A stretch of DNA of 64,000 nucleotides from Raillietiella orientalis. Its lineage: Eukaryota. The notes beneath the pieces were generated by a model. It did not search any database and was not told where the DNA came from. It saw only the letters and a program-made list of their open reading frames with translations. Made by a program: the position numbers and the translations under genes. This document shows positions 1-62,664 of the stretch, piece after piece (the first letter of the stretch is position 1; each line of letters opens with the position of its first letter). The stretch lies in contig JAYWIR010000048.1 of the NCBI GenBank assembly GCA_036172245.1, positions 1 to 64,000 of the forward strand. Direction: 5' to 3'.

Positions 1-1515
1 ATGAGATCGAACGGATCTCCTGAGGGCGGCAATGGTACAGGTGTGGAAGAGCGAAAAGTTGCGCTGTCGCCTACCTGCTTCGGCCGGCCGTCGAGGCCGC
101 AGCTCGGGGCGTGCAGTTCGACGATCACGGTCGTGTGGGCCAGCTGACTCTCAGGTGGTCCGATGCGATCGATCTAATCGTCACAAACGTGTACGCACCG
201 AGCGGCGCAAACCTGATGACTAGGAGGGCGAGGAAAGAGTTTTTCCTTGCCCTCCGCCGAGTCTGGCTGACCGAAACAGGCGTGCAAAATGCCCATTTGG
301 TTGCAGGCGATTTCAACGTTCGCCTGAAACCAGATGGGCAGAATCCCGAGCGTGACCTGGTCAACGAGGTGTGCATAGCGGTGCACACCTGTAATTTGTT
401 GGTTAGTGCATTGGAGATGGAAGACTGCATTGACCACGTGTTTCTTGACGAGCACCTGTGCCCTTGCGTGGGCATGCGTGGCAAGTTACCGTGCGAGTTG
501 TCCGACCATCGACCAATCGTGATTGAAATCCTTCCATGCGACAAGGGCCCACCCTTGTCAGCGTGCCGTTTGCCAGGGGACTGGCTGAAGCTCCCGGACA
601 CGACGGAACATCTCCGCACGTTTATACGGAGCTCCAGGATGCAGACACTCCAGGATTGCGACCGCTTCAAACGGTCGGTCTAGGATTTCTGCAACCAGTT
701 TCCTATGCACCGCCTACCTGCGAAATTTGGGACCGGGGTTCGTAACGAACGAGCCTACCTGCAGGCCCGTCCTTACGCCAGGACCCCCGACATCCGCAGG
801 CTGGCGCAATACAGAGCGGGAGCCGAGAGACAAGCCTGGCAGTCCGGATCGGCCAGCTTGCTGGACGATCAGGGCCTGCTGCGGAGTTACTGCTCCTCCC
901 TGTATGCCAGGGCACCTTTGGAGAGGAACGTCTCACGACTCCTGCTTCCGGAAGGCGCTCCTGCGATCGGGGAGGAGCAGAGAAAGACCCTCGACGAGTT
1001 TTTCACGACGGACGAGATCCTCTTAGCCATCGGAAAGCTCAAGAGGCGAAAGGCTCCAGAAAAGGACGGCCTGCCCGCGAAGTTTTATCAAACTTTCGCG
1101 GCTGAGCTTACCCCCCTGGTACAGCAACTCACCTTGCTGATACGCGAAACAGGTGTCGTTCCCGCCTCGTTTCGTTCGGCAAAGGTGCGGCTCCTTTCTA
1201 AGGGAGGAGATCTGAGGAGCATGAACAACTGGCGTCTCATCACAATCGTGAATGCGGACGCCAAGTTGCTGGCTAACCTTTGGGCAGAGCGGTTGAAACG
1301 GGTTGCCAACATCTTCGTCAGCCCGGAACAGACATATGCTGTTTTGGGCGAAGCATGGAGGCGAACCTGTTCCACGCTTCCACCTGGCTAGAGCTCCAAC
1401 AAAAAGCAGCTTGGTGCGCAGCCGGAATTCCGCTGCGTGCGCCGGCAAGGAGATGGCTTGTCGGGTGGGGGTGGAAGCCCTTACAATCGGAATCGACTTG
1501 CGGAAAGCATTCGAT
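1..1515 (+). mobile_element. LINE family A, ORF2 fragment (EN + N-half RT), decayed, cut at DLRKAFD; runs off window start
   Basis: ORFs 111-683 (NVYAP, GDFN, IDHV, SDH) and 705-1391 (KAPEKDG, WRLITIVNADAK, PEQTYA); ends at GIDLRKAFD (~1490-1515). Confidence 0.9.
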
Positions 1516-3327
1516 TTTCACCCGGATTTCGCCGGGGCGTTGATTATAAAACAAACATTTACAAAGACGTGCAGTGGCTGGACCGTTGCACCAGCTACGC
1601 ACAAAGAAACACAGAGCCTGCCGGGTCACCGTTTCGCAGACCGGTACGGTCCATCACGGCAGCAGGGGGAAGGGGGAAAAACAAAAAACAAAACAAAAAA
1701 GAAAATAAAAGTTGGGAGGGTAAGGGAAGGGATCCCTGTTGCTGGTGGGGCCGTTGCATCCTTTGCGGGATGCCGGCAAGCGCCTTCTGTATTCCTGGTC
1801 CTAGGTGGGGCCATCGGGACGCCCTCCTCAGGAACTGGGAGGCTGGCTGGATGGCACCCTGGTCGCGTTGTCCTCCCGTAGCCTTGCTCCAAGCGGTGAC
1901 GATCCCGCGTAGGCAGCACAAAGCTGCTAACGAGGCCGCTGGCCGAAGGGCGTCAGCAGCGAAGAGGGCTTTCAGTGCGTCCCTGGGGTTGCCGCAGGGG
2001 ATTTCGATGACTGCGGCAAAGCGAAACCAAAGGGGCCGAAGGGCAACACAATCCACTAGCAGGTGGGGCAGGGACTTCCTCCCTTCGGGAGGAGCCGCAC
2101 CTTTGCCCAACGAAACGAGGCGGGAACGTAACTCGTTTCGCGTATCAGCAAGGTGAGTTCATGAGCCAGAGGGGTAAGCTCAGCTTCGAAAGTTTGGTTT
2201 AACTCCGCGGGCAGGCCGTCCTCCCCTGCAGCCTTGCGCCTCTTGAGCTTTCCGATGGCCGAGAGGATCTCGTCCATCGTGAAAGGCTCGTCGAGGGTCT
2301 TTCTCAGCTCCTCCCCGATCGCTGGAGCACCAATCGGAAGCAAGAGTCGTGACACGTTCCTCTCCAAAGGTGCCCTGGCATACAGGGAGGAGCAGTAACT
2401 CCGCAGCAGGCCGCGGATTTGGGCGGGTGCCGAGTGCTCCTGGCCCTGATCCTCCAGCAAGCTGGCCGATCCGGACTGCCAGGCTTGCCTCTGGGATCAT
2501 GCTTTGTGTTCCGACAGCCTGCGGATGTCGGGGGTCCTGGCGTAACGACGGGCCTGCAGGTAGGCTCCTTCGTTACGGACCTTGGTCCCAAAACCCGTAG
2601 GTAGGCGGTGCAGAGGGAGCTGGTCGCAGAACTCCTGGACCGACCGTTTGAAGCGGTCGCAATCCTGGAGTGCCTGCATCCTGAAGCTCCGCATAAACGT
2701 GCGGAGATGTTCCGTCGCGTCCGGGAGCTTTAGCCAGTCCCCTGGCAAACGCCACGCTAACGAGAGAAGGCCCCTTACCCGCGGATGGATTTCAATCACG
2801 ATTGGTCGATGGTCGGACAACTCGCACGGTAACTTGCCGCGCTTGCCCACGCGAGGGCACAGGTGCTCGTCAAGAAACACGTGGTCAATGCTGTGTTCCA
2901 TCCCCGGTGCACTAACCAAAAAATTACAGGTGTGCATCGCCATACACACCTCGTTGACCAGGCCACGCTCGGGATTCTGCCCATCTGGTTTCAGGCGAAC
3001 GTTGAAATCGCCTGCAACCAGATGGGCATTCCGCACGCCTGCTTCGGTCAGCCAGTCTCGCCGGAGGGCAAGGAAAAACTCTTTCCTCGCCCTCCTGGTC
3101 ACCAGGTCCGCGCCGCTCGGTGCGTACACGTTTGTGACGATTAGATCGATCGCATCGGACCACCTGAGATTCAGCTGGCCGACACGACCGTCATCGTCGA
3201 ACCGCACGCCCCGAGCCGCGGCCTCGACGGCTGGCCGAAGCAGGTAGGCGACTCCGCAACTTTTCGCTCTCCCACACCTGTACCACAGTTGCCCTCTGCA
3301 TATCTGTTCGATCTCTTGCGCTCGTAC
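1516..3327 (-). mobile_element. LINE family A, 3' part: EN C-half, RT N-part, internal deletion (~2085), C-terminal domain, 3'UTR and terminus
   Basis: ORFs 2497-3207 (EN), 2056-2460 (RT start) and 1595-2110 (SLPHLLVDC); terminal hairpin motif 1515-1545; closely similar to 1-1200 in inverted orientation. Confidence 0.9.
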
Positions 3328-3520
3328 AGTGCAGACGTGTTTCCGCGTCTATCCGCGCCAACGATCGGGCAACCTTGTGCCTGCGTTTTCGCTCGCACTT
3401 GTGTGTTCCTGTGCAATCTGCCAAGTAGCATAGTGCAACAAGGCCAGTACACTGGATTGTGTGGAGTAGCAAGCCACTGGATGCACTTCAGCTACACTTG
3501 AAGCGGCCGCATCCTCCGTA

Positions 3521-4684
3521 ATGGTTTCCTCGCCTACGGTGAGGAGTTACGCCGCAGTTACCTCCCAAAGACCAGGACCCTGCGATGCGGAGTTCCAGGC
3601 ATATGTGTCATCAGGATACATGCCTGCACTCCGTTATAAGGTCAGTGGGCCCCTTAACGGGAGAATCGGTCGTGAGCTTAATGATGAGCTCGTCCGGATC
3701 GGCGTTCGCGAGGAGGAACTCCTTGCCATAATGCCTGCTGGCAGGATGGAATATACGAAGATTCGGTGCAGGAACGCAGCACTTGTGCAGCGCCTTCTCC
3801 GTACGCCGTTGACCATCAGTGGCAAGGAAGTCCTACTTACCGCGATGGACGACTCTTTTGTCGTTCAATTGTCCGACATCGAACCGGAAATCTCCGACCG
3901 CGATGTCGTAAGTGTGCTGGCGAAGTTCGCCACCGTGCACGCTCTGTGGAGGAGGCCAAATCCTCTAAAGGATTTCCCCTCTGTCCACATTGGACAAGCC
4001 TCCGCGCAGATCACCATCGCGAACAAGCGTGTAGTGCCTGAGCAGCTGCAGGTGAACGGCACGGTCGTTCACCTGTGGTTCATAGGCCAGACTCGCGCGT
4101 GCGAGCAGTGCGGCAAGGAGGGGCACCGAATTAAAGAGTGTCCCTCTCCAAGATGCCGCTATTGCAAAGATTCCGGGCACGAAATCAAAAAGTGCCTGGT
4201 ACTTGCAAGAAAAAGAGCTGCAGCGGAAATTCGTCGGGTTCAAGAGACCACTGCACGAAAAGCCGCAGCGGCAAATAAAAAACGTCGTCCGCAAAAACTC
4301 GCAAAAAACCACGAGCGATCCGCGGATGAAAAGAAAGCATCCCCGCCCGCAACGCCCCGAAAGGGGAAAGTCACGGCGGGGAAGCCAATTAAAAAGGAGC
4401 GCGAGGGTTTGACGCGTGCCGTGCCTTCCCTCTCTGCCGAACTCGCAGGCACCTTTCCGAACCTGGAACCAGGAAATCTCCGTAACACCCTGGAGGGAAA
4501 GGTAGGAAAACAGGAAGATCGCAACAGTGCGAAGACTTCTTGCCCCGTTCCGTTGTCCCTTCCGAGTTCCGGACAGCCCCACTGCAGCGCAGGCCCCACT
4601 GCAAAGGCTACGAAAGCCGTAAAAAGCAGCGTCGCGACGAGCAAAAGCACGCTGCATGCAGTCGCCCCATCGCCGACTCGGCAG
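3521..4684 (+). pseudogene. Family E ORF1 N-part (gag-like, two CCHC knuckles)
   Basis: CEQCGKEGHRIKEC and CRYCKDSGHEIKKC; frame resumes after the duplicated SPTRQ at 10328. Confidence 0.85.
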
Positions 4685-4811
4685 TTTTCCCCAAGTCCCA
4701 CGAGGGGTGGGGTAAATTTATTTTTCTAAAATTTTTCTATAAAAACATTCACACTACAATCTCATCCATACCATTAGCACTTTTCTTTACCACTATGAAG
4801 TCCTTGGGTTC

Positions 4812-7800
4812 TCACAAGTTCTGCACACATGGTGGGTTTGCTGCTGTTTGGTCCCGGGCGTCGTCTTCTATCCTCTTCAGGATGAATCGGTACGTCCAGG
4901 CTTGCATTTTTCCACAGTTTTTAATGCCGATTTCCCTCTTCAGGAGCCCTTGTAGGATCTCCATCGGTGGTGCGGCTCTTCTCGCTTTTTTCATTTTCCA
5001 CCACCGCACAAGTATGGCGGTGATGAAGAGGGCGATGGTCGTCCTCACGATGGGATTGTAACAGGGAACATTACCATTCCCCTGAAACATCCCGGCGAGG
5101 ATCTCCATTACGGACCTGGTGGTGAGTCCGATGATTTTTTTCAGGATCAGCCAGTCATGCAGCAGTGTGGGACACGTCAAGACGTGAAGTCTCGTGTCGT
5201 CGTCGCCACATGCTGCGCAGTCTCGGTCTTCCCGTCTTCCTGTGAAGTGCTGCAATCGGGACCCACTCTGGATTCCTCCGTGATAAAACATCAGGAGGTC
5301 ATCCTGGGTGCCCGGCGGAAGGTCACTCCTCCAGAGCGTCGTGCCAATCGCTAACAGGTTGATCCGATCACTCCCGTAGCGATCGGCGGCTTCCTGGAGG
5401 GCACTAATATCACTGTGTTCTTCCTGAATTAGTCTTCGGAGGTTTGTTTTGGTTACCCTGGACCACGCAAAGTCGTTGTGATTGAACCACACTTCGCGAG
5501 TCATGAGGGCAAACCTTCCTAACATCATCTCTATATACCTAAGTATACGAGTGTGATGTAGGTACCCTCCTCGTTTCCATTCCTGGATTCGTTGAAGGGT
5601 AACTCTGGACCGCTGGTGGATCCAGCTTCTCGTGTCCGGCGGGACAGGAAGCATCCAAGGGATCACCAGGATGGACTCGTCCTGCCAGAGTACCCTACTT
5701 CTCGGCACGATCTTGATTTTGTGCTTTCGCACCAGCCGTTGCTTAATCGTCCAGGTTGGGTCGATTTTTTTCCATTCGCCTCCTCGGCCTAGCAGCGCAG
5801 TCATCAGTCCTTTCGAGTTGTTCAACAACAACGCGTAGGCCCTATGCGCCGCATACGGCCAGTCATCCCAGTGAGTGGCAATGTCCAGGATGTGTCGCGT
5901 ATCCATGATTTCTATGGAGTGTGCAAGCGACTTCATCCCGGAACCGCCTTCTTCCCTGGGACGACACAGGGGTTTCAGTCTTACTCTTGGGCGATAGTGG
6001 CCCCAGAGTGTTTTTCTTTGCAGCTTGTCGAACTCCCTAGTAGTGTCCTTGTTTATCCTCGCGAAGGCCGCCCCGAAGAGCACTTTTGGAAGGAGTACTT
6101 CGTTCCATATGTTGGCCTTTCGCTTCATTCCAAGGTCCGTTCGGGTGTACTTGGCTGCTTCCTTGGGCGTTTTCCCTAGGATCTCGGTCCACAATAGCTT
6201 CGACGCGGAGACGTCGCCAATGTAGACACCCAGGTACTTGGCCTTGTCCACCGTTCGGAATCCTCTCCCCGCTATAGTGGAGAGATCGAGGATTCCAACG
6301 GGCAAGAGCTGGCTTTTCTGGGCGTTGATCTTTAGACCGAGGCCTTGATCCATCAGGTCTACCACATCCAGAAACGCTCGCTGATTTCTCTCTCCCTTGA
6401 TAAAGAAGAGTAGATCATCAGCGTATGCCAGATGGGTTAGAGGCTGGTTATCGATTGTAATGTTTTGCAGTCGTAAGCTCTTCTCGATAAAGGACCACAA
6501 CGCCTCCATATAGATGACGAACAGCATCGGACTTAGCGAATCGCCCTGCCGGACTTCCCGTTCCATCCGGATTGCTGCCGTCTCCTGGCCGTTGATCTTG
6601 ATCCGGCAGTACTGCCTCTGGAGAACCGCCCTCACGAAGTTGCTGAAGTGTTCCGGAAGCCCTAGATTCTCCAGAACCTTCAGCAGCATCCCGTGGTCGA
6701 TGGAGTCGAAAGCCTTCTCCATGTCAGTGAACACAAGCGCCAGATTCTCGCCGACGTATCGGCTGAGTCCGACGGTGGCCTAGGCGCACTTGACATTGTC
6801 CGACATGTGACGTCCAGGGACTGCACACGTTTGGATCTGAGAGATGAGTCTCGACATGACCTTGCCTAAGCGGTTGGACCAGATCTTCGCCGACCACTTG
6901 GCATCCGAGTTCAGGATCGAGATTGGCCTCCATTGAGCGACCTGCGTGAGGTCGCCTCCTTTTAGCAACAATCTCATCCGACTCTCGTAGAAGGAATGTG
7001 GAAGTCTTCCTTCTTCATGGATGCAGAGGGTCAACTGGTGGAACACACGCAGGTAGGCATGCAAGTACCGCTGATAGTGAGTGATGGGTACGCTATCAGG
7101 GCCCGCTGCCACGTCCTTGCGTAGTTGACCAAACGCAGTCTTCACCTCGTCTTCGGAGAATTCCTCCTCCAGTCTGTTCCGCTGGAGATCGTCGGTCCTC
7201 TTCTCGAGGTAGCTCAGAAAGGCCTGTTGACTAGAGCGACAGAGATGTTGTCGCCTAAAGTGTTTCGTGTAATGCCTTTGAAAGGCATCCACGATGTCCT
7301 CAGACGACTGTCGCTTTTGAACGTCGTACTGGATGCAGAAGATATCTGTTGCCAGATTTCTCTTCTCCAGCACTCCCACTTCCCCTTTTATGTTCTTCAA
7401 GACGTACCGACTCTCGTACTGATCGAAGTACTTTGAGTGTGAGCGATCTTGGATGTTCAGCTCCCGCTACGCCTCCTGCCTTAAGCACCTATCTCCGAAC
7501 TGCATGTTTGCAAACAGGTGTATCCTGTGTTTCAGGCTGTCCCAGTCGGCGACTCTTCGGATTGTTGTTGCCCTCAGAATCGCCTCCAGGACAGCCTGAT
7601 GTCGGGATGGGTTTCGAACCAGGCGGGCATGCTAATGAGCGCCGCCCTGGTGCCTTGCCTCCGCGGAGAATTCTCCGTTCTTAGGGAAAACCGCACCAGG
7701 CGGTGATCGGACACCGTGGTCATAATGTCTCGAAACCCCTGGATGCGATTCCCAAGTTCGGTGCTGTGCAGGACGTGATCGATCGGCTTGTGACTTGCAG

Positions 7801-8344
7801 TTCGCCACACCAGTCTGAACTCGGCGGATAACCGCTGATACGCCGTCCTTCCTCTGGCGTCCTCGGAGTGAGTGATCTCTTTTAATATGTTGAGATCCGC
7901 AGCAACAATCACGACGTCCTTGGGAGCAACCTTTTTACAAAGTGCTGCATGCAGCGCCTCCGCACAACGATGTTTTAGCCTGTGCGGTCCGTACACGTTC
8001 ACCAGGATGAGGTGAACAGTAGCGGACCAGGCGAGTCGCACGCCGATGATTCGTCCGGGTTGGGGACAGAACACTTCCAGAATAGTGGGGGCCAAGTTGT
8101 TCTTGATTAGGACCGCCACTCCCTGCGTGTTCCGTTCTCCCTCGCTGACGAAAATCTGCCCGTTGAATCGCCGTTCCATTTGCTGACTAATCTCGAGACC
8201 CATCTTGTGGGTCTCCTGCAGGCACACTATGTCTTGTTGTGCGATGGTCCGCACAATCCTTCTTCTTTTTCCCTGGTCGACCATACCGTTTACATTCCAG
8301 GAGGCGATGTTCAGCCTCCTGGCGGTCGATAGGGAAGAGGCCAT
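4812..8344 (-). pseudogene. Family F ORF2 (APE endonuclease-RT-Zn finger), broken into 3-4 pieces
   Basis: SWNVNG, CLQET, NVYGP, ADLN, IDHV, SDH; WRPISILNSDAK; DMEKAFD, RQGDSLSP, YADD, KYLG; CAAC..HVLTC. Stops at 7574 and 6780. Confidence 0.9.
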
Positions 8345-8357
8345 AAAAGGGGAAGAC

Positions 8358-10124
8358 CTATTTCTTGGCCTTCCTGAGCTTCTTCTGTCTGAGAGAGCGT
8401 GCTCTTCCAGACAATGAAGAAGCAGCGGGCTTCTCGCTGCCGGCGTCACTCTCTGTTCCGGTGAGGTCGGTTACTTCCGCCTCCTCCGTCGAGTGTTCGG
8501 CCCGCTCGATCAGTTTTCGAGATAGCGTCTCTATCTGGACCTTGGCGCAGAAGTTCGCCTTTACGTCGAGAAGCTGTTCCTCTAGCTTTTCGCGCTCGGT
8601 GACCTCCACAACCTGGTTGACCTTCTCCTGTGCATTGCAGATCTTCTGCAAGATTTTCTCTTGCTGGGGACCGCTCTGCACCTCTAGGACTACATTAGCC
8701 AGTGATGCCAACTCCTCCGTAGATTGCAGGGCCTCCTGTGACACCGGAGTGGCTTCGGCTTTTTCTTCTTCCGCGCCTTCCTGCGCTACCTCCATCTTCT
8801 CGCCTTCTTGCTCTTCACCTTCCAGGATAAGAGGGGTTTCTTGCTCCTTGACGAGCATCCTTCTCTTTCCTTTCTTCCCTACCTGTACAAAGCCGTCTTC
8901 CGATACCGGGACGGCTTCTTTCACCTTCTTCGGCCTTCCTGCCTTCTGAGGCTGTTCCGCCTCCTTGGTGTTTCTCTCTCTCACGGGAGAGAGACCACGA
9001 ATCCTTCTGCAGTTTGCAAACTCCGGACAGCTCCATTTGGCATGTCCGTGTTTCTTGCAGAAGGAGCACACCTCTCGCTGCGGGCAGTTTCGGACTTGAT
9101 GTCCTACTTTGCCGCAGCGGAAACAACGACACGTTGGGCAAGCGCCGGCCCTGTGGCCGAACTGCTTGCACCCGGTACACAATATCGGCTGTTGCCGGTA
9201 AAGCACGTTCACTCCCTGGGATTGTTCGTCAAGAACGGCTAATCCAGGGATCACAGCTCCCTCTTTCAACTTCATTTTGGCGATCATGTCGCCAGAAAAT
9301 ATTTTTTTAGAGAAGTTCTGAAAATCAAGGTCCAGAACTTCCCCAAACTGCTCCAAGTAATTCCACACCGCTAGTTGCGGTGTGAGGATGGAGATGCCGT
9401 TTAAAAAGACGGTTGTGTATGGCATCTCGCCAATACCACAAACCATCCGTCCTTGTATATTGATCCCCTTCTGGATCAATCGCTCTCTAATGTTTTCACA
9501 GTCTGTAAAGACTGTGAACCCGTTGTTCGATGGAATGATCGCCTGAATGCGATCAAATTCTATGTCCGTCTTGTCGAGGGACAAATAGACCTCCCTGATG
9601 TTATTAAATTTTATTAGCCCCGTCTTGAAGATAATGGGCTTCACGTTGGGGCCTATTTCCACTATTGGTCGGTCCACTTTTAGTACTTTTCCGCTAAGCG
9701 GCTTACCGAATTTCCTAGGTGGGTGGACACTCGCCTGTCCAGCCGCCACCGACGCATAAGAAAAGGGCTGCGACGCCGCAGCCGAACAAGATGGCGTCGC
9801 TCCCTGCACCGCGTGGACGCCCGCGGGTCCCGCCTGGGACGCCACCGCCGCGGGCGCAAACCTCGACGTTGCCGCCGTTACCGCCGCGGGCGGCACCCTC
9901 GGCATCGCCGCCGCAGGCGCGACCTTCCCCGCCGCGGGCACGATCCTCGGCATCGCCGCCGCGGGCACGACCTCCGCCGTCGTCGCGGTGGGCACGACCC
10001 TTGGCATCGGCGCCGCCGGCGCAGCATAGCCCGCCGCGGGCGCGATCCTCGGCATGCCTGCCACCACCTCGCCGTTGCCGCACGTTACCTCCATGGCTTC
10101 CATGGGGGACGACGGTCTCTCCAC
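8358..10124 (-). CDS. Family F ORF1, 588 aa, three CCHC knuckles, Ala/Pro repeats, acidic coiled-coil tail
   Basis: CTGCKQFGHRAGAC, CFRCGKVGHQVRNC, CSFCKKHGHAKWSC; uninterrupted ORF. Confidence 0.85.
   Translation of the reverse strand: MERPSSPMEAMEVTCGNGEVVAGMPRIAPAAGYAAPAAPMPRVVPTATTAEVVPAAAMPRIVPAAGKVAPAAAMPRVPPAAVTAATSRFAPAAVASQAGPAGVHAVQGATPSCSAAASQPFSYASVAAGQASVHPPRKFGKPLSGKVLKVDRPIVEIGPNVKPIIFKTGLIKFNNIREVYLSLDKTDIEFDRIQAIIPSNNGFTVFTDCENIRERLIQKGINIQGRMVCGIGEMPYTTVFLNGISILTPQLAVWNYLEQFGEVLDLDFQNFSKKIFSGDMIAKMKLKEGAVIPGLAVLDEQSQGVNVLYRQQPILCTGCKQFGHRAGACPTCRCFRCGKVGHQVRNCPQREVCSFCKKHGHAKWSCPEFANCRRIRGLSPVRERNTKEAEQPQKAGRPKKVKEAVPVSEDGFVQVGKKGKRRMLVKEQETPLILEGEEQEGEKMEVAQEGAEEEKAEATPVSQEALQSTEELASLANVVLEVQSGPQQEKILQKICNAQEKVNQVVEVTEREKLEEQLLDVKANFCAKVQIETLSRKLIERAEHSTEEAEVTDLTGTESDAGSEKPAASSLSGRARSLRQKKLRKAKK
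9860..10060 (-). repeat. 48-54 bp tandem coding repeats (MPR[IV][AVP]P[AT]A, 4 units) in family F ORF1
   Basis: MPRIAPAA / MPRVVPTA / MPRIVPAA / MPRVPPAA in the translation. Confidence 0.8.
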
Positions 10125-10327
10125 TCCTCTTCTAGGTGCCTGGATCCTGGCAGCTGGTCTTGCTGCACGGGACCACTGCAGGTCTTCCGCCGCGATCTCC
10201 TCGGCGCTTCTTTTCTAGTTTCGTTTGGAAAACTTCCCCTCTCCGGGCACACACGAGCACAATGAACTGATTAAGTTGTCGAGCGCACAATACTTTGAGC
10301 CGCGAAAAAAGTTCACCGACTCGGCAG

Positions 10328-14558: not shown

Positions 14559-14880
14559 GAACGGCGTAATCCGGTGACCCCTGCGACCTCTTCCCCACCC
14601 ATACCCCGTCCCCGTTCGCTCGGTAAAATTTCCGGTGCCCATGCTTTTATCCCCGTGTCTTCCAGAGCGATCCCAAAGACCCTTATCCCGTCCTCCTTAT
14701 TCATTGTTTTTATTTTATTTTGGTTTCTTTGTGTTCCCCGCCCCCCCACACCGTTCACAAAACTGTTATTCTGGCCTGCGTCCCAGCAATATTCTCTTTA
14801 TTCTTTTTCAGTCGTCGGATGGGAGTTTGGTTCCCAACTGGTTTATTTTGTATAATTGCTTTTTTGTTTTTGTTATATGG

Positions 14881-25739: not shown

Positions 25740-25818
25740 CGTCGTCAAAATGTACGACGCCAAGATGAAGCGGATGAAAGCACGGAGACGAGAGCGAAGA
25801 AAAACACGTCCGCACTCG

Positions 25819-26450: not shown

Positions 26451-26478
26451 CCTCCACCTAGCGTCCCGCTCCAGCAGG
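26320..26478. repeat. Perfect 34-bp inverted repeat (26320-26353 / 26445-26478)
   Basis: cctgctggagcgggacgctaggtggaggagaggg and its exact reverse complement. Confidence 0.9.
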
Positions 26479-26481
26479 AAA

Positions 26482-28419: not shown

Positions 28420-31400
28420 CAGCAATGCGCGGTCTCGCTTCTTCCCGTCGCGTCCGAGTGGCCTGTTGGAACGTCAACGGGCTGCAGGACAACGAGAAGA
28501 GGCGATTGGTTGCCAACGTCTTGCGTGACTTCGATCTGGCCCTGCTGCAGGAGATTCACGCACTCTCCGAGCAGCAAGCGGCCGATCTGCAAGTTCGCGC
28601 AGGCGGGACGCTCCATTGGAGGTCAGGCTCCCAGAATACCTGCGGAGTCGCATTCCTTGTCCGGGGCAGGGTGGCGGGAGCGGTGCGGAGCGTTTGTTTC
28701 GACGAGGAAGGTCGTGTGGGCCAACTTGTTCTCAAGTGGTCCGAATCGATCAACCTTGTCGTCACGAACGTGTACGCGCCGAGCGGCTTCGCGCGTCACA
28801 CCGAGAAACTGGAGTTTTTTGAGAGACTGCGCGACCGCTGGCTCAGCAACTCCGGCCCCGACGTGGTTCACCTCGTAGCCGGGGACTTCAACGTCCACGC
28901 GCTATCGGAGGAGTCTCACCGTCGCCGGAAGAAACGGCTGGTGAACGAGGTGTGCGCGTCGGTGCACGCCTCGAATTTGCTGGCCGACGATCCCGGAATG
29001 CGTGCTTTGCCGGACCATGTGTTCCTCGACGATCACCTGCATTGTCGGGTGGGTCGAAGAGGTCCCGTGCCGTCCGAGCTTTCCGACCACTACAGGCTGG
29101 AGTTTGAGCTACTCCCGCCTGGCAAGGGCCCTGCGACGCACGTCTGGAGGTTGCCGGCCGACTGGTTGAGAAATCCGGTGGCTGCGGAGCACCTCCGCCA
29201 GCATCTGCGGACCTTTGCCGTTCGAGAGCTCGTGGACTGGGACGATCTGAAAAGATCGGTCCGCGAGTTCTGCAGCCGGTTCCCCTTGCGCTTCCCCGTG
29301 GCTTCGGGGAAGGCGTGGCCAACAGCAGAGAGTTTCTGCAGGCCCGCCAATTCTTTCGATGCCCGGACGTCCGGTACCTTGCGGAGTACAAGGCCAAGGC
29401 CGAGCGCCAGGTCTGGCAGTCAGGAGCAGCTTGTCTGCTCGACGACCAGGGCCTGGAGTGCTCGGGCGCGGCCGAAGTTCGCCGCCTCCTAAAGCGCTAT
29501 TACTCCTTGTTGTACGCTAGGGAGCCGACGGAACGCAGTCTCTCGGAGCTGCTTCTGCCGGCGGATTCCCCGGCGGTCGACGAGGAGGAACGCGCCACTC
29601 TTGACTTGCCCTTCACGGCGGGAGAAGTGTCTTCCGCCATAGCGGGCCTCAAGAAGCGCAAGGCGCCAGGTGAGGATGGTCTGCCTGCGGAGTTCTTCCA
29701 GTGCTTCGCGGCGGAACTCATCCCCCTGGTGCTGAGGCTTTCTGCGCTGATGCGAGAGACGGGCAATGTGCCGGCCTCGTTTCGCTCAGCAAGGGTGCGT
29801 CTGTTGCCGAAAGGCGGAGACATGCGCCATTTAAGCAACTGGCGTCCCATCACCTTGGTGAATGCGGACGTCAAGTTGTTCTCCAGGCTGTGGGTCGCGC
29901 GCCTGGGCAGGATCGCTGGATCCGTGGTAAGTCCGGAGCAGTCTTACGCTGTTCCCGGGCGGTCCATGGAGGCGAACCTGTTCTTCGCGCGCACGTGGCT
30001 CGAGCTGCAACGCTGCGTGGCGCACGACAGCCAGGCACCCGCGTCTGCGGCTGCCGAGGCTAGGCGTCGCTGCATTCGGCCTGGGGAAGCGCCGGGTGCC
30101 TTGGCGGTCGCGGTCGATCTCCGCAAGGCGTTCGATTGCGTAAATCAGGATCTCCTGCGGGAGCTCCTGGAACGCCTCGGTCTCCCGGTGCACCTCGTGG
30201 CGTATTTGCGCGCTTGCTGGCGCCACGCGCTCATTTCCATCTCTTTTAGCGGCTGCCACGTGTACGGCGTGCCGGTGCGGCGGGGCATCAGGCAGGGCGA
30301 CAGCTTAAGCCCGTTGCTCTTCAGCATCTTCTTTGAGTTGGTGCTGAGGGCGTACAGGCTGACGGTGGCCAACCTGCCGAGCTCTTGTCCAGGAACGCCG
30401 TCCGTGGCGGCCTATGCTGACGACCTGCTCCTCCTCTTACCCATGACCACCCCGGCATCCAGTCTCGAGGATTTCTTCGAGCTGATTCGCCGGGGGGCGG
30501 GCATGAGCGTAAACCGGAGCAAGAGCGTGGTCGTACCTATTGGTGCGGCGTGGGAGGGGCAGTCCGACTGGATCCGCCTGGGGATCCCGACCGCTTCCTC
30601 CGTGCAATATCTGGGCGTTCCGCTGGGGAACATCAGCCCAATGGAAGTGTGGTCGGACTGCCTTCGGAAGGCTTCGAATGCCCTGAGCCCGTTCCACCAT
30701 GGCAGGTTCGTCCTGCCGGAGCGGGCCACGATATGGAACACCTTCGTTGCCCCTCTCTTGCGCCCCCTGCTTTTTGTTTGCCCGCCCCCCTACTCGGCCA
30801 AGCTCCAGGCGCACAGCCTGTTGAGGAACGCTCTGTGGAGACCTGCGAGGTCCAGGATCCGCCTCAAAGACTTGGCGGCTCCGCTACGGGATGCTGGCTT
30901 AGGCATCCTGACGCTGGAGAGAATCGAGCTGCAGGTGCAGCTTCGGATGTTGGCCCTGTGCGCCAACCTTTGGTCCACTCCGTGGTGCGCTCCCGCGCGC
31001 CTGCTTCTGCGGCGCTGCACAGGCAGCGATGGACTTCTGTCGCTGCGGCCGCACACGGAGCGCGCCACGAGAAGCTTCGGTTTCCCCTTGAAACCGCTGT
31101 ATCGGCTCCTGGAAGCCCAGGGATGGATCTCCTGCCGCCCAACGAACTTTCAAGCCTGGCGGCAGGAACCGTTGCATGGCTGGGCAAAGCACCAGGATGT
31201 TTCCCTCCTGGAACTCCGTTGCGCTCACCTCTCCCCGTATTGCACGGTGGATGAGGTGTGCAACAGCCAGGAGAAGTGGACCCGCCTGGCCGTCACCCCC
31301 CTCGAAGACGCACTGTCAGCCCTTAGGGCAAGAGATGACAGTTGCGAACCGGCGAGATGGGAGGTCGCCTGCACCATCGCAGGAACAACGCGACCTATTG

Positions 31401-31984
31401 GCGGCTGGAAGACTTGCGAGCTGGCGGACGCCGCCACGCCTCGCCACGTTTCGAAGGGACTCCTTCGGTGGAGCGAACACTTGAGTGTGCCCCTTGAAGA
31501 ACTTGTGGTTCCTCCCTCGTGTCTGAACACTTCTGTGTTCCCCCTTTCGTGGAAGCAGGACGTGATTATGCTGGTGCATTGGGGTTTTCACTCCAGCCAG
31601 CGCACGAACCTTGTTTCCGGAAGAGTCGTCTCCCCAAACTGTAAGCGGTGCGGGGAAGTGGAAACGCTCCCGCACCTGCTCCTGGACTGCGGTGCCCTTC
31701 TAGGACTCTGGCGGAGGCTGGCCTCAGCTCTCCTGCACCAGGGGGACACCGCGAGGGAGTTGATGCGCCGCTTCTTCTCGCCAGGCGGCCTGTCATTGGG
31801 TGCTGTCGTTGCAACCGTGTGTTGCACCCGCGCCATCGACAAGGCCCACCGAGAGTTGGAGAAGCTGGCCATCCTTCGTCAGCCCACCGGATTAGCCAGC
31901 GCAAACATGTCGTCGGCTGCCCAGTGGGCCCATCTGCCACAGGGCGTAAGGAGAGAGATCGCCGGCATCCATCGCCCGTTTTGA
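28410..31984 (+). pseudogene. Family C ORF2 EN-RT-Zn finger, one frameshift near 29290
   Basis: ORFs 28410-29492 and 29315-31984; all EN and RT motifs present; CKRCGEVETLPHLLLDC. Confidence 0.92.
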
Positions 31985-32401
31985 AAGGAAGGAACGGATT
32001 TACCAAAGACCCCTGTCCCCTGCCCTCCATATTTTTCTTTTATTTTTTTATATAGTAGTGTGTTTGTGGTCCCTTCCCTCCCGTTCCGGACTTTCGGCAT
32101 ACCGACCTGCGTGTCGGGGATCCCACCCCCTTCGTCTCTTGTTTTCCCCTTTGTCCGGGAACCCTGTTCCCGGATAGTTTATAATAAACGTCCCGGCGCA
32201 CCAGGGTGACAAACAGCCAACCCCCCGCGTTCGTCTCGATCTCCTGGACGTCTGCCGCGGTGATCACGTGGATCTCCTGCAACAGGGCCAGGTCGAACTC
32301 CCGCATGGTGTCGGCTGTATCTCGCCTGTTACCGTCGTCGCGCAGCCCGTTGACATTCCAACAGGCCGCGCGAATGCGACGGCGACTGGCGAGCCCAGGT
32401 G

Positions 32402-34153
32402 TTACTCCTGGGAAGATGGCAGTGCGGCGTCCGCCATCTGCTGGGGCGGGACGCTAGGTGGACGAGGGGGGTCAGGTGCTGAAGGCACCTGGTCCCCCTC
32501 CTTTATCGGTGCCGGCGCGTCGGCCGGATCACCCGCAGGTGGAGTCGCGCCTACCTGTTCGCCCTCCTCCATGGGGGCGGGATGTTCAGGGTCGGCGCCT
32601 GCAGGGGGGACTTCACCCCCCTGTTCACCCTCCGCCATGGGGGTGGCCGGATCGACGGCTTCCGAGTGTGGGAATTCCTCCTCCGAATTTCCCACGCTGG
32701 CGACGGTTTCCGTCTTCTCCTCCTCGCTGGTGGAGGGGAGGCGCCTCCTGGGCTTCTGGGACTTGCGACCAGACTTCCTGGGGGGTGCCTCCGAGGAGGA
32801 GGATGTACTTCCGGCCCCCATGTCTAACTCACCTGTGGGGGCCTTCTTCGCCGGAGCCGGCCTTCGCACGGCCTTGCGCGAGGGGTTCTCACGCTCGGCC
32901 AGCGTGACCGCGAGCTCCTCCGCCACCTGCGCGAACGCGGCGTCCGCGGCTTCGTCCGCCGCTATGTCGCGCGGCTCACCCTCTGTGTAAACAGAGGGTT
33001 CGCCGTCGCGAGCCTCGGGCGCAGCGGAAACGGCAAGGGGAGGATCGACGCGCCGGGTGGCCATCTCGGGAACGACGATTCGTTCCAGTGCCACCGTGCA
33101 CCTGCGCAGAGTTTTCGAGCGCGGACCGGGTTTTTTCGGCTTACCGGCCGTTTTGCGCTCTTCGCTCTCCGCGGGTGGGAGTTTCCTTGGCTTTCTGGCC
33201 TCTACAAGCTGCCATCCCTCTTCGCCTTCCACCGTTTCAGAAGGTTTATCCTCCGGCTTACGCGCCGGAGGTTGAGGTGTTGGCAGCTTGTGCTGGCCCT
33301 TTTCTACTTTAGGTCTAGAGACCTTTGAAGCACGTTTCCCCTGCGCTTTTTTCGCGGCAGGGGGAACCAAGGTGGGGCGTTTGGGGCACACGCGCCGAAC
33401 GTGGCCCCGCTCCCCGCACAAATGGCATTGTATATTGGGACACCTTTTAGGTAGGTGACCCACGGTATCACAATGCCCGCAATACCGGGGCTTCCCTACA
33501 TACCACAGGTCGACGTTTTCTTGCGCCACCTGTAGTTTGTGGGGAAGCCCACAATTCTCCCTTACGGTAACCCACGCTGCAGCCTGCCCACCAAAAAGGC
33601 TATCGAAGCCGTCGAAAATGGAGGGTTTCGGCCACAGTGCGTGCACCTCACCGTACTTCCGTAATTCCTCACCAACCGCTGACCGCGTCATGCGGCTGGT
33701 GATGCCAGTCATGTGGACCACCACGGAGCGGTCCATTGATACTGGCAGGATCTTGCGGCCGTCTACGTTCAGCGGCGCATGGATTAGGCGGTGAGTTAAG
33801 GTGACATCTTTGCAGACCACCTCGACCCGCTGCCCGCCGCTGAGGACGGAGAGGCCGTCCAGATCCTTCTCATTAACATTCGCGTCCTTCAACGCTTTGC
33901 TGAAGGCGCGCGCTGTCCGGCCTTCGAACAAGTTGCCTACCTGGTAGACAAGCGATGGCTTGTACCCGGAGGCCTTGCATGCTGCCATCTCCGCCATGGC
34001 TTCTGCGCTGGGCGCGGCCACCATGGCGCTCCATGTCCTCTGCGTGTCCGGGGATGATTCCGGGGCGGCTGCCCCTGCTCCAGTAGGCTGTGGGGGCGAA
34101 CTAGCCTTGCCCACTCCCACCTCCATCGCGGTGTCCTCTGGCGTCGTGGCCAT
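32402..34153 (-). CDS. Family B ORF1, intact
   Basis: MATTPEDTAMEV start; CGHCDTVGHLPKRC, CHLCGERGHVRRVC. Confidence 0.85.
   Translation of the reverse strand: MATTPEDTAMEVGVGKASSPPQPTGAGAAAPESSPDTQRTWSAMVAAPSAEAMAEMAACKASGYKPSLVYQVGNLFEGRTARAFSKALKDANVNEKDLDGLSVLSGGQRVEVVCKDVTLTHRLIHAPLNVDGRKILPVSMDRSVVVHMTGITSRMTRSAVGEELRKYGEVHALWPKPSIFDGFDSLFGGQAAAWVTVRENCGLPHKLQVAQENVDLWYVGKPRYCGHCDTVGHLPKRCPNIQCHLCGERGHVRRVCPKRPTLVPPAAKKAQGKRASKVSRPKVEKGQHKLPTPQPPARKPEDKPSETVEGEEGWQLVEARKPRKLPPAESEERKTAGKPKKPGPRSKTLRRCTVALERIVVPEMATRRVDPPLAVSAAPEARDGEPSVYTEGEPRDIAADEAADAAFAQVAEELAVTLAERENPSRKAVRRPAPAKKAPTGELDMGAGSTSSSSEAPPRKSGRKSQKPRRRLPSTSEEEKTETVASVGNSEEEFPHSEAVDPATPMAEGEQGGEVPPAGADPEHPAPMEEGEQVGATPPAGDPADAPAPIKEGDQVPSAPDPPRPPSVPPQQMADAALPSSQE
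32485..32655 (-). repeat. 66-bp (22-aa) PMxEGxQ repeats in family B ORF1 tail
   Basis: PMAEGEQ..., PMEEGEQ..., PIKEGDQ spaced 22 aa apart. Confidence 0.75.
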
Positions 34154-34240
34154 TGGACACCGACGATGTACACAAAACACCACACACATTAAAGCGCTTT
34201 CCTACTACTCTTGAGGAGTGAAGGAAAAACACGTCCTCCA

Positions 34241-35590
34241 ACTGGCCGTGGAGGGCGCTGGCTGCACGAGGCTGCTAGCTCCTCCGCGGCACGCGCGAAG
34301 GCTACGTCATCGATGTTGGTGTCGATGACGGACGCCGCCGCCGGCTCCCTATCCTCGCTGTTGACAGAGTCAACAGAGGGGTTGTCGTCGGTAGCGGGGA
34401 GTTCTTTTTCGCAGCGGTCGGGAATGCGCTCCACGACAACGCTGCATTCTTTAATTTGCTCGCTTGCCTGCTGTTTTTTCTAGCGGTACGCGAGCTTTTT
34501 CTCCATCCTCCTCTCCTTCTTTGATTTTCTGGCCGTAGCCACCTGCCACCCAGGCTCCTGGCTATTTCCCTCGACTTGTTCGGCGTTGTTCACCAGGGTC
34601 TCGAGTGCGGCCTGGGCCTTGGGCGCGGGTGGCACAGCCTTCGCGGCAGCTTTCGCCGCCAGCCTTTTCTGCAGAAGCCGGGCGCGTTTTTTAATGTTTC
34701 TCTTGGAAACCACCCGCACTGCTGCTTTTGGGCACACCTTTCTCCTGTGGCCCATTGTGCCGCATACTTGGCACTGCACGTTGAGACACCTCTTTTTGAG
34801 GTGGCCCGACGTATTGCAAAAGCCACAGTATTTCGGCTTCCCCACATACCAGAGGTCGACGGTTTCGCCTTCGACCACTGGTTTGTGGGGAAGAGTGCAG
34901 TTCTCCCGAACGGTCACGCGCGCAGCAGTGATGCCGTGTTGCAGCCCCGTGTAGTCCTCGAAAGGACTAACTTTCGTCCACTGCGCGTGGACCGTTCCGT
35001 ATTCCTCCAGCGCGGCGCAAACCTGTGCCTTGCGCATCCGCGCGTTAACACCTAACAGGTGGACCACCATGCTGCGGTCCGCCGTAATAGGGAGGAGCCT
35101 GCGCGTCTTCATCACCACGGGGGTTTTAAGGAGTCGTTGGGCCATCTCTGCTTGTTTGCAGATGACCTCAACGTACTGACCCCCGCTGCGGATGGTCATA
35201 GCGCTGAGCTCCTCCTCTTTCACATCGAGAGCGCGCATGCCCTTCGAGAAGGCGCGCGCGCTCTCTAAAGAATATAAATTGCCTACCTTGTAGAACTATG
35301 AGGGGTTGTACCCCTCCTCTATATAGGCCGACAATTCCGCCGCGGCTGCAGGTGATGGCGCCGACACAACGGCGCTCCACGCTTGCGCTGCAGCGGGGAC
35401 CGATTCTGTGGGGGCGCATGCCCCACCTCCTTCGCCTCCGGGGGCTACGTTGCCGCTGCCCCCTGGCCATCCCTGGTGGTCGCGTCAGGCATCGCTGCCT
35501 GATCGACCACCGAACCACACGACGCTTGCACTGGGGGAGACTTCCTGGCACGAGGAGCACCGAGAAAACACGTCCACCCTGGAGCACGCC
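34241..35590 (-). mobile_element. LINE family A 5' part (5' end + ORF1 N-two-thirds)
   Basis: 5' motif 35564-35575; ORF 34480-35238 with CGFCNTSGHLKKRC, CQVCGTMGHRRKVC; FARAAEELAA at 34189-34434. Confidence 0.85.
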
Positions 35591-36509
35591 AGGCGGTCGA
35601 TTGCGTAAATCAGGATCTCCTGCTGGAGCCTTTAGAACGTCTCGGTCTCCCGGTGCACCTCGTGGCGTGTTTGCGCGCTTGCTGGCGCCACGCGCAAATT
35701 CTTATCTCTTTTAGAGGCTGCCACGTGTACGGCGTGCCGATGCGGCGGGGCATCAGGCAGGGCGGCAGCTTAAGCCCGTTGCTCTTCAGCATCTTCTTTG
35801 AGTTGGTGCTGAGGGCGTACAGGCTGACGCTGGCCAACCTGCCGAGCTCCTTTCCAGGAACGCCGTCCGTGGCAGCCTATGCTGACGACCTGCTTCTCTT
35901 CTTACTAATGACCACCCGGTGGAGATGTCTCCCTAAACTGTGAGCGGTACGGGGAAGTGGAAACGCTCCCGCACCTGCTTTTCGACTGCGGTGCCCTCCT
36001 AGGACTGTGGCGGAGGCTGGCCTTAGCTCTCCTGCACCAGGGGGACACCGCGAGGGATTTGATGCGCCGCTTCTTCACGCCAGGCGGCCTGTCCTTAGGT
36101 GCTGTTGTTGCAACCGTGTGTTGCACCCGCGTCATCGACAAGGCCCACCGACAACTGGAGAAGTTGGCCATCCTCCGTCAGCCCACCGGCTTAGCCAGCG
36201 CCAGCATGTCGTCGGGTGCCGAATGGGCGCATCTTCCAGAGAGCGTGAGGAACGAGATCGCCGGCATCCATCGCCCGTTCTGAAAGGAAGGAACGGCAGA
36301 ACCAAAGACCCCTGTCCCCTGCCCTCCATATCTTTATTTTTATTTTTTCTATTCGGTGTATTTGTGGTCCCCTCCCTCCCGTTCCGGACTTTCGGCATAC
36401 CGACCCGCGTGTCGGGGATCCCACCCCCTTCTTTACTCTATGTGCTTTGTCCGGGAACTTTGCTCCCGGATTGTTTGTTATAAACGCCTCGGCGCACCTG
36501 GGTGATAAA
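35591..36509 (+). mobile_element. LINE family C 3' fragment from KAFD, internally deleted (~35920)
   Basis: Matches 30126-30450 and then 31625-32213; YADD; terminus 36479-36509. Confidence 0.9.
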
Positions 36510-38545
36510 CAGTCAACCCCCCGCGATCGTTTCGATCTCCTGGACGTCTGCCGCAGAGATCACGTGGATCTTCTGCAGCAGGGCCAGGTCGAACTCACGC
36601 AAGGTGTAGGCCGTATCTCGTCTGTTGCCGTCGTTGCGCAGCCCGTTGACGTTCAAACTGGCCACGCGGATTCGACGGTGACAGGCGAGCCCAGGTGTTA
36701 TTCCTGGGAGATCGGCTCTGCGGCGTCCGCCACCTGTTGGGGCGGGACGCAAGGTGGAGGAGGAGGGGGACAGGTGCTGAAGGCACCTGGTCCTCCTCCT
36801 CCATGGGTACCGTAGCGTCGCGCGGCTCCCTCTCCGGTGGGGTCGCGCCTACCTGTTGGCCCTCCTCCATAGGGGTGGGCTGTTCAGGGTCCGCGACGGC
36901 AAGGGGGACTTCGCCCCCTGCTCACCCTCCGCCATGGAGGTGGCCGACTCGACGACTTCCGCGCGTGGGAGTTCCCCCTCCGGGATTTTCACGCTGCCGT
37001 CGGCTTCCTGCTTCTCCTCCTCGCTCGTGGAAGGGAGGCGCCTCCTAGGCTTTTGGGAATTGAGTCCCGTCTTCCGGGCAGGTGCCTCCGACGAGGAGGA
37101 TGCACTTCCGGCCCCCAGGTCGCACTCACCTGCGGGGGTTTTTTTCGCGGGAGCCGGCCTTCGCACGGCCTTGTGTGAGGGGTTCTCACGCTCGGCCAGC
37201 GTGGCCGCGAGCTCCTCCGCCGCCTGCGCGAACGCGGCGTCCTTGGCTTCGACCGTCACTATGTCGCGCGGCTCACCCTCTGTGCAAACAGATGGTTCGC
37301 CGTCGCGAACCTCTGGCGCGGCGGAAACGGCGAGGGGAGGCTCGTCGCCCCGGGTGGCAGCCTCGGGAACGCTGATGCGCTCCAGTGCTACCGAGCACTC
37401 GCGTATATTTTTCGAGCGCGGCCCAGGTTTTTTCGCCTTTTTGGCCGGCTTTGCCACCGCTTTCTCTGGTGAACGCTTTTTCGGTTCTTTTTTGGCCTTA
37501 ACCAGCGTCCATCTCTCTTCCTCTCCTGCGTCTTCCGCGGGTTTTTCCTCCGACGCCTGGGTGGGAGGAACAGGAGATGGCGGCTGGGGCCGGCCAGTAT
37601 CGCGCGCTGGTCTTTCCCTTAGCTTTTCTTGTTTGCCCTGTGCCTTTTTGGCCTCAAGGGGAACCGGGGTGGGGCGTTTCGGGCACACGCGCCGAACGTG
37701 GCCCCGCTCCCCGCACAGGTGGCACTGGATGTTAGGACATAGTCTGCGAACGTGTCCTACGGCATCACTGTAGTTGCAATACCGGGGCTTCCCCACTTAC
37801 TAGAGGTCGACCGTTTCTCTGGCAACCTCCAGTTTGTGGGGGAGGCCACAATCCTCCTTGACGGTGACACGCGCCGCAGCCTGGCCCCCGAAAAGGCTAC
37901 TGTAGCCTTCAAAGATCGTGGGTTTAGGCCACAGCGCATGCACATCGCCGTGTTTTTTCAATTCCCCACTCACCGCAGTGCGAGTCATGCGGTTCGTGAT
38001 TCCGGTTAAATGGACCACAACGGAGCGGTCCATTGTAACCGGATAGATCTTGCGGCCTTCTGCCGTCAGTGGGTTATTTATCAAGCGCTGTGCCAAGGTG
38101 ATGTCTTTGCACACCACCTCGACGCGCTGAACCCCTCTGAGGACGGAGAGGCCGTCAAGATCTTCTTCCCTGACATTCGCTGACTGCAGCGCCCTCGTGA
38201 AGGCACGTGCAGTCTTCCCATCGAACAGGTTGCCTACCTTGTATACAAGCGATGGATTGTACCCGGCGGCCCTGTACGCTGCTTGTTCAGCCAACGTTTC
38301 CGCGCTAGGCGCGGAAACCATGGCGCTCCAGCTCCTCGTCTTGGGCGACGAGGGCGATTCCAAGGCCTTTGATTCTGTGAGTCGTGGGGGGGGCTAGCCT
38401 GCCTCACTCCTACCTCCATCGTGGTGTCCTCTGGCAGCGATGTTATCGGACACCAACGATGTGAAACAGCACACACTTAACCAAAAAAAACCGCTTTCCG
38501 GTACTCGTACGCGGAGCGCCGGAAAAACACGTCCGCTCTCGAGGA
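36510..38545 (-). mobile_element. LINE family B (second subfamily) 5' part: ORF1 with stop/frameshift, EN start
   Basis: 5' motif 38522-38536; ORFs 37800-38363, 36849-37796, 36513-36752. Confidence 0.88.
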
Positions 38546-62650: not shown

Positions 62651-62664
62651 CAGTCTCGCCGCCT

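Follow-up and report, generated by a model that had tools for sequence, protein, structure and literature searches.

A probable Zepp-type island of at least eight putative L1-clade LINE lineages that insert into one another

How do several families of long interspersed nuclear elements (LINEs) come to lie inside one another, and do they choose their landing sites by sequence? The question is raised by positions 1 to 64,000 of contig JAYWIR010000048.1 (assembly GCA_036172245.1, Raillietiella orientalis), a 64 kb stretch referred to here as the window, most of which was described in an initial annotation as a Russian-doll nest of LINE families linked in a B->A->C->B cycle. The window itself, one public DNA run (X1) and the literature together make it probable that positions 1 to ~49.5 kb form a Zepp-type island of at least eight L1-clade lineages with like ends, which feeds itself by biased, site-favouring integration into resident copies.

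The island has a GC content of 55-65%, that of the following 12 kb being 45-51%. On both strands the GC-rich part is dense with open reading frames (ORFs) bearing CCHC knuckles (ORF1), an APE-type endonuclease (EN) and reverse transcriptase (RT). The Exo_endo_phos and RVT_1 domains share a single frame in elements D1 and D2 and occupy neighbouring frames in C and F (the letters are those of the list below). The open EN and RT frame of D2 (924 aa) finds its best solved-structure match in human LINE-1 ORF2p (E 1e-44), with R2 proteins at ~1e-14, and judged by ORF2 domain layout and structure-database scores the elements appear to be L1-clade LINEs. A protein search with the C RT frame returned 102 matches, the best being a metagenome ORF at 61% identity and the next at ≤34%; none of the 102 is named as algal, and database relatives of the frame carry PF00078, PF03372 and PF13966. 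A metagenome scan with the 3′-end pattern gave 27 loci, about the number expected by chance on a rough estimate, none of which was window-like (0/27; blastn 1e-5, tblastx 1e-8). The 3′ poly(A) or simple-repeat tail by which L1-clade elements are recognized is absent here, just 2-4 A following a conserved hairpin motif; in the part of Ohshima's table consulted, the 3′ repeat is likewise missing in 5/15 green-algal L1 families (PMC3472496). The elements and fragments of the window are as follows (UTR, untranslated region; TSD, target-site duplication).

A0, 1 to 1516, plus strand: A-lineage EN-to-RT fragment, cut by the window start and forming the left host flank of A; stops directly after the KAFD codons (KAFD at 1504).
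A, 3′ piece, 1517 to 3327, minus strand: EN part, internal deletion of ~1.9 kb at ~2077, 3′ UTR and 3′ hairpin end at 1517.
E, 5′ piece, 3328 to 4684, plus strand: starts with GCAGACGTG; ORF1 with CCHC knuckle.
F, 4685 to 10315, minus strand: full-length copy of a very divergent lineage, with its own 3′ hairpin and a perfect 12-bp TSD, CCGACTCGGCAG.
E, 3′ piece, 10316 to 14910, plus strand: EN, RT and 3′ end at 14910; antisense in A, 9 codons past A's LQKIH.
A, middle piece, 14911 to 15455, minus strand: ORF1 end and EN start, between the E and B inserts.
B, last 260 bp, 15456 to 15715, minus strand: 3′ hairpin end, 81.6% identical to the B″ 3′ end.
D1, 15716 to 19903, minus strand: full 5′ end; lacks the 3′ 1.7 kb through a deletion common to B's ORF2.
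D2 with its target, 19904 to 25826, minus strand: full-length D2 at 19912-25818, with the 8-bp target ATTGAAAT at 19904-19911 and 25819-25826.
B, left piece, 25827 to 26478, minus strand: B-type ORF1 end and EN start, stopping in the GDFN codons at the D joint.
C, 26479 to 32213, plus strand: ORF1 open, ORF2 frameshifted; 3′ end at 32213 antisense in B, 17 codons past LQEIH.
B, 5′ 2 kb, 32214 to 34240, minus strand: open ORF1 of 599 aa; 5′ end at 34240, sense in A.
A, 5′ 1350 bp, 34241 to 35590, minus strand: includes the 5′ end of A.
C′, 35591 to 36509, plus strand: RT fragment of the C lineage running from the KAFD codons to the 3′ end, less an internal 1.16 kb; right host flank of A.
B′, 36510 to 38545, minus strand: B-type 5′ 2 kb, holding C′ at the nucleotide equal to the C/B junction.
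B″, 38560 to 41626, minus strand: B-type piece from RT to 3′ end, the latter head-to-tail 17 nt upstream of the B′ 5′ end; its other end, in the EN-RT linker, adjoins the A′ 5′ end.
A′, 41627 to 42950, plus strand: 5′-terminal 1.3 kb, from a lineage sharing 63% identity with A; interrupted by B‴ at the homologue of 34240/34241.
B‴, 42951 to 43594, plus strand: 5′ 644 bp, 92% identical to B, ending at a non-retrotransposition breakpoint.
B⁗, 43598 to 45301, minus strand: B-type 5′ 1.7 kb, with its 5′ end in G.
G, 45302 to 47152, minus strand: 5′ part of a further lineage; contains a 24-bp tandem repeat and an ORF1 with CCHC knuckle; the 5′ end, GCAGACGTG, lies against the RT of H.
H, 47153 to 49190, plus strand: A-lineage piece from RT to 3′ UTR, 87-89% identical to A0 and A.
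B5, 62450 to 63943, minus strand: B-type 5′ part, beyond 12 kb of non-LINE, lower-GC DNA.

The limits of these elements are marked by sequences common to many copies. The heptamer GGACGTG has 17 matches in the window, compared with 8.9 expected (17 was reached by 2 of 100 shuffles), and nine of the 17 open a longer shared start, GGACGTGTYTTTYC, at which similarity between copies begins (D1, D2, B, A, B′, A′, B‴, B⁗ and B5). E and G begin with the variant GCAGACGTG, the other form of the 5′ end being GGACGTGT. A complete 5′ end is present in 12 copies (A, A′, B, B′, B‴, B⁗, B5, D1, D2, E, F and G), C being short by only ~80 bp. The 3′ end has the form (A/T)ATAAACGCCCCGG-loop-CCGGGTGA followed by 2-4 A (ATAAACG-hairpin-A2-4); a loose search for it gave 22 matches, seven of them true ends (1517-, 14910+, 15456-, 19912-, 32213+, 36509+ and 38560-), and the F 3′ terminus at 4685 carries a different hairpin. 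The idea that the 3′ hairpin is a strongly stable structure was discarded, the stems being of 5 bp and folding z-scores ranging from -2.6 to +0.4; the firm marker of the end is the sequence motif alone. The boundaries drawn in the initial annotation (1516, 3327/3328, 4684/4685, 10315/10316, 14910, 15455/15456, 15715/15716, 25818, 26478/26479, 32213, 34240, 35590, 36509 and ~38545) coincide with element ends. Outside the island, a ~35-bp fragment resembling a 3′ end (hairpin and GGGTGATAA) at 63945-63979 directly adjoins the B5 5′ end and may be an extremely truncated insertion.

The Russian-doll arrangement is largely real. The insertions of F in E, E in A, B in A, and C and the two D copies in B are borne out by element ends, TSDs and split reading frames that rejoin across the inserts. 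F is bounded by a 12/12 TSD, the ORF1 of E reads through the joint for 475 aa, and the across-joint distance is 1049 bp, compared with 1044 bp in the D reference. At the E insertion the TSD agrees at 15/17 positions, the pieces of A meet at C-coordinates ~2094-2110, and a 280-aa frame spans the joint. At the B insertion the 1350-bp piece of A stops at B-coordinate ~1350-1364 and the next begins at ~1349-1354, so that on B coordinates the pieces of A follow one another directly and in order; a 150-aa frame spans this joint, and the TSD is degenerate, its first 6 nt being identical. D2 is flanked by identical copies of ATTGAAAT (8/8), the lower of which touches the D1 5′ end, and 15710-19911 (D1) matches 21623-25826 (D2) at 97.1%. 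TSDs of 8-17 bp thus occur at F, E, D2, B and A, and a duplication of ~360 bp at C. Their decay follows the order of nesting, the inner F (12/12) and D (8/8) being perfect, E standing at 15/17 and the C duplication at 90%, and the outer B and A being degenerate.

Confirmation of the nest is nevertheless partial, since the left flank of A, the duplication at C, a deletion shared by D1 and B, and a copied C/B junction deviate from it. The placement of A in C holds on the right flank (35591-36509), which is of the C lineage (92%, 88%), whereas the left flank (1-1516) is of the A lineage: A0 (3-1208) matches A 3315-2077 inverted at 87.6%, over its EN segment identity is 89.7% with A and 58.4% with C, and overall it is ~58-69% identical to C and 87.5% identical to H, of the A lineage. 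Both flanks are collinear and bounded by KAFD codons, the left TSD copy being A0/H-like and the right one C-like, and the mixture requires either some subsequent exchange or a joint made between two elements. At C in B, 26096-~26460 duplicates 32214-~32575 (~360 bp; 340/377 aligned bases identical), a geometry that is that of a very long target duplication. The C site is unoccupied at 26095/26096, where the left duplicate continues uninterrupted past it; the sequence there is CAGGCGAC (26096-26103), the occupied sites reading CAGCCAAC (32214-32221) and CAGTCAAC (36510-36517). B lacks everything between the GDFN codons and its last 260 bp and D1 lacks its 3′ 1.7 kb; a single ~4.7 kb deletion would explain both losses, and this part is not a clean nest. 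Internal losses also affect A (~1.9 kb of RT) and C′ (1.16 kb). At 43594-43598, B-type 5′ parts of two sub-lineages (73% alike) are joined inverted with no element end there, and the joint is a rearrangement breakpoint rather than one made by retrotransposition.

The number of lineages was judged from nucleotide identity on a conserved ORF1 segment. D1 and D2 are 97.6% identical, the four B-type copies 71-76%, and A and A′ 63%; C, D and E share 57-66%, G reaches ≤64% with any other copy, and F stays below 42% with all others. These distances indicate at least eight diverged lineages within 50 kb, and 13 guest-host relations in the same span agree with the earlier claim that several families co-exist and insert into each other. 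Run X1 contigs, 97.5-98.4% identical to D2, suggest that D is the youngest lineage and the most abundant there, contig depth being a poor measure of abundance. Over D-type sequence (19668-26337) the summed X1 contig depth is 15-27, as against 1-16 in most other covered parts. Internal repeats are present in several copies: a 24/48-bp tandem repeat in the G 5′ part (46784-46985; ~7 and 4 copies, 69-75% matches), which adds ~190 bp relative to A; 27-, 36- and 48-bp repeats in the N-terminal part of F ORF1 (9844-10055), encoding a proline- and alanine-rich repeat; and an A-rich 12-bp tandem repeat of 2.8 copies in the A 3′ UTR (1678-1710).

The evidence for site preference comes from insertion points that were used more than once. 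B and B‴ enter A and A′ at the same aligned nucleotide, and similarity changes in a sharp step at the joint, the inserts being 92.4% identical (594/643) and the hosts 64.4% (841/1305). Differences between A and A′ number 75, 63 and 116 of 232 at codon positions 1, 2 and 3, respectively (p 1e-4). This bias, together with a protein identity of 57%, implies that the two hosts diverged as working coding lineages, and since an ORF1 bearing the B insert could not have diverged while coding, B and B‴ represent two separate hits. The refuting outcome named in the initial annotation, recurrent junctions copied from one ancestor with host and insert equally diverged, is thus not what the B/B‴ joint displays. 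Tandem re-use is seen at D, where D2 has entered the copy of the 8-bp target that D1 left behind.

Run X1 supplies further joints. A look-up of sequencing runs yielded this one DNA run (0.15 share of words) and no RNA run among those listed; 300 contig pieces were placed on the window in likeness classes of 20, 53, 79 and 148. In two contigs a D-type 3′ end, 97.5% identical to D2 over 1029 bp, is followed by an A-type flank, the junction falling on the very nucleotide used by E; this flank agrees with A's flank of E at 27/30 bases (counted by hand), and because D and E are only ~70-74% alike, the D insertion at the E site is a separate event. Two further contigs continue from a D-type 3′ end into the 8-bp target and then an EN-like D-F-N-L-R-L-L-S-V-D; here the D site of a B-type EN has kept its downstream side. 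The joint 32212->34433, placing a C-type 3′ end beside A-type sequence, is weak (34-letter side, 85% likeness), and the remaining X1 joints were set aside because they look like cross-alignment between repeat copies. None of the listed X1 contigs bridges a key joint by ≥31 letters; record 3 passes the D2 5′ end by 21.

Several of the sites fall in codons for essential motifs. The D site lies in the GDFN codons of EN and the A site directly after the KAFD codons of RT, G adjoins H ahead of the RT K-L-x-x-K-x-W stretch, and the E and C sites lie 9 and 17 codons, respectively, past LQ(E/K)IH. When conservation was expressed as the percentile of 15-nt windows on a C/D/E/F alignment (on which G is placed approximately, within 5 nt), the six ORF2 sites fell at the 97.3, 97.9, 97.9, 49, 41 and 20th percentiles. 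Three of the six (GDFN, KAFD and the RT motif) are therefore in the top 3%, for which a binomial estimate gives a chance of ~5e-4, the test having been chosen after the data were seen. Four bases in from the joint, C/G-A-A-T/C could be read by eye at 6/8 3′ joints, or 5/7 counting C and C′ once. The F-in-E (element coordinate 1357) and B-in-A (1350) points might represent one homologous ORF1 position; in the protein alignment they are 14 columns apart, within unalignable ORF1 linker.

It is proposed that the island would have grown as new copies entered resident ones by target-primed reverse transcription (in nest order A first, then B and E, and then C, D and F), and that deletions, a single inverted breakpoint and the copying of at least one segment later remodelled it. 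Integration would be biased to fellow elements and would favour certain nucleotides within them, several of these lying in codons that every lineage must keep (GDFN, KAFD, K-L-x-x-K-x-W and the post-LQEIH stretch). With favoured sites in indispensable codons, each new copy would supply new landing pads and the island would feed itself; the earlier suggestion that the cluster regenerates its own landing pads accordingly finds support in the re-use of particular nucleotides. Such re-use would reflect recognition by the elements' machinery, and the island may be centromere-like. Whether that machinery, in at least eight lineages, recognizes with nucleotide precision the coding sequence of the indispensable motifs (GDFN, KAFD, K-L-x-x-K-x-W and post-LQEIH) is a narrower proposition, which we regard as possible but doubtful. 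If true, purifying selection on the residents' own enzymes would preserve landing pads for all lineages, giving a self-renewing multi-lineage island and possibly a centromere. Should the sites hold genome-wide, they would explain the self-renewal of the island, its sharing by many lineages and its compactness, and would indicate L1-type elements with real sequence targeting.

A number of observations weigh against a self-feeding, site-favouring island. The motif interpretation was made post hoc, the other three of the six ORF2 sites lie outside conserved windows (20th, 41st and 49th percentile), and three ORF1 sites (B in A, F in E and B⁗ in G) are in variable linker sequence. The window joints have no common sequence at the nick. 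The 3′ hairpins have stems of just 5 bp, with the z-scores given above; the flanks of A are hybrid and require an additional event; and the C/B pair looks copied rather than repeated. Stops or frameshifts occur somewhere in every copy, and present activity is thus putative. The evidence for site use consists of 13 junctions in one window and a few contig ends from run X1, whose contigs are short and which may derive from the same organism.

Some of these observations would also be expected if sequence played no role, the island attracting elements in another way, for example through its chromatin, and repeated junctions arising by segmental duplication, gene conversion or unequal exchange. The C/B pair does behave as a copied segment: between the C/B and C′/B′ junctions, identity is 88.0% over the insert, 84-90% over the 800 bp of host next to it and 67-77% over the host 5′ 1.2 kb, so that host and insert are equally diverged, as the refuting outcome described, and one junction has probably been copied. 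The hybrid flanks of A, the deletions and the inverted breakpoint speak the same way, as does a nick without clear consensus, no microhomology between element tail and target being seen at the window joints. Guests lie in both orientations (six antisense and six sense, C and C′ counted once), and in Chlamydomonas ZeppL has been tied to CENH3 chromatin in the part of the report seen (bioRxiv 10.1101/2025.03.28.645958). Against this stand the sharp step at the B/B‴ joint, from an insert at 92% to a host at 64%, between hosts that diverged under coding constraint; the presence of D-type and E-type inserts only ~70-74% alike at one nucleotide of A-type hosts; and the position of 3/6 ORF2 sites in the top 3% of conserved windows. 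An island assembled with no contribution from sequence is on this evidence unlikely.

Less likely again is the scheme originally proposed, a rock-paper-scissors arrangement in which the endonuclease of each family recognizes one preferred site in a different family and the B->A->C->B cycle is closed. Its adjacencies exist: B lies within A, A beside C′, and C and C′ within B and B′; B struck the same nucleotide of two A-type hosts independently; and C, D and E types lie within A and B types in four window events (C′ counted), to which X1 contig ends and the weak joint add more. The individual links are less secure. A->C is half supported, the left flank of A being of the A lineage (EN 89.7% A, 58.4% C) and the TSD copies lineage-specific, and C->B is probably a copied junction, with C/B and C′/B′ equally diverged in host and insert and the C site unoccupied in a third B copy. 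Nor does each family keep to one site in another family, since own-kind and multi-site insertions were found: A lies in A0, B″ head-to-tail on B′ and D2 on D1's target, and D uses two sites, in the window the GDFN codons of a B-type EN and in run X1 the post-LQxIH site of E in an A-type host. A, A′ and G all host B-type 5′ ends, which also occur beside B′; the host of A′ is B″ and that of G is H, an A-lineage piece, so that lineages do not display the strict single target of Tx1, R1 and R2. A second loop, B'''->A'->B'', is also present. Chance alone should yield loops when at least eight lineages enter into 13 guest-host relations, and no special rule is called for. The B->A->C->B loop exists as adjacency and is a by-product of lineages sharing one island rather than rock-paper-scissors targeting, a reading of the cycle that leaves the initial interpretation partly supported overall.

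That part of the architecture, notably the 34-kb-wide split of A and its hybrid flanks, is an artefact of assembling a highly repeated region is highly improbable: although the two flanks of A come from different lineages, 2-4 kb repeats at 80-97% identity lie close together and bridging X1 contigs are wanting at the key joints, TSDs, collinear rejoining and joint-crossing frames hold at six insertions, unlike a random misjoin, and TSD decay tracks nest order.

Beyond the island, 50000-62400 is a lower-GC (45-51%) stretch with no LINE similarity, probably unique DNA and perhaps an intron-rich gene. A Pfam scan of 27 frames across 49-62 kb gave a weak CAP_N at 60174-60557 as its sole match.

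Site-specific LINEs that form tandem arrays, each with one strict target, include R1 and R2 in rDNA and Tx1L in Tx1D. The self-feeding island resembles them in that a target regenerated by the TSD receives head-to-tail copies, as at D2-D1 and B″-B′, and resembles Tx1L further in that the target lies inside another mobile element; it differs in that a lineage uses several sites and that the hosts are its own relatives. HeT-A, TART and TAHRE of Drosophila telomeres are, in the descriptions consulted in part, likewise several LINE lineages that share a self-built chromosomal niche. They are added head-to-tail at the chromosome end, whereas the window elements are internal nested insertions with TSDs in both orientations.

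The closest likeness is to Zepp and ZeppL, with which comparison was made from published descriptions, available in part, rather than from their sequences. The Zepp host, Coccomyxa subellipsoidea C-169, was first described as Chlorella vulgaris C-169, and it contains nested Zepp clusters, one per chromosome, that are GC-rich (61% vs 53%; PMC3446292). Zepp and the window island are alike in consisting of nested L1-type LINE copies that target existing copies and in forming a GC-rich island in a lower-GC genome (PMC3446292; PMC8226300); Zepp clusters are also thought to be centromeric (PMC3446292; PMC8226300), as the window island may be. Among the differences, the Zepp 3′ end is (A)n (PMC3472496, Table 1), that of the window elements being a hairpin and 2-4 A; Zepp arrays are mostly 5′-truncated 3′ ends (PMC8226300), compared with 12 copies here that have a complete 5′ end; and C-169 centromeres are essentially single-element (PMC11005252), whereas at least eight lineages share the window island. 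A similar parallel is offered by ZeppL-1_cRei, an L1 LINE that still moves, is bound by CENH3 and is restricted to a single cluster on each chromosome. According to the sections seen, a single ZeppL family is present in Chlamydomonas and two in C. schloesseri and E. debaryana (PMC8226300), again fewer than the lineages of the window, and ZeppL-1_cRei ends in poly(A) (PMC3472496), which the window elements do not; L1-1_CR also ends in (A)n (PMC3472496). Nucleotide-level site re-use is not described in the portions of the Zepp and ZeppL literature consulted, and a limited full-text search, by which absence is unproven, found in the portions seen no description of multi-lineage cross-insertion at catalytic-motif codons.

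Because nested Zepp clusters are already in the literature, the kind of structure is known, and the window island is a multi-lineage variant of the Zepp-type nested LINE cluster. What it adds to the literature covered, as far as the parts seen extend, is the number of lineages, mostly full-length copies, hairpin ends without poly(A), and nucleotide-level re-use of sites. Zepp-type islands are presumed to serve as centromeres in several green algae. In defined nucleotides of conserved codons, struck repeatedly by different lineages, the window offers testable candidates for how elements of this kind find their island.

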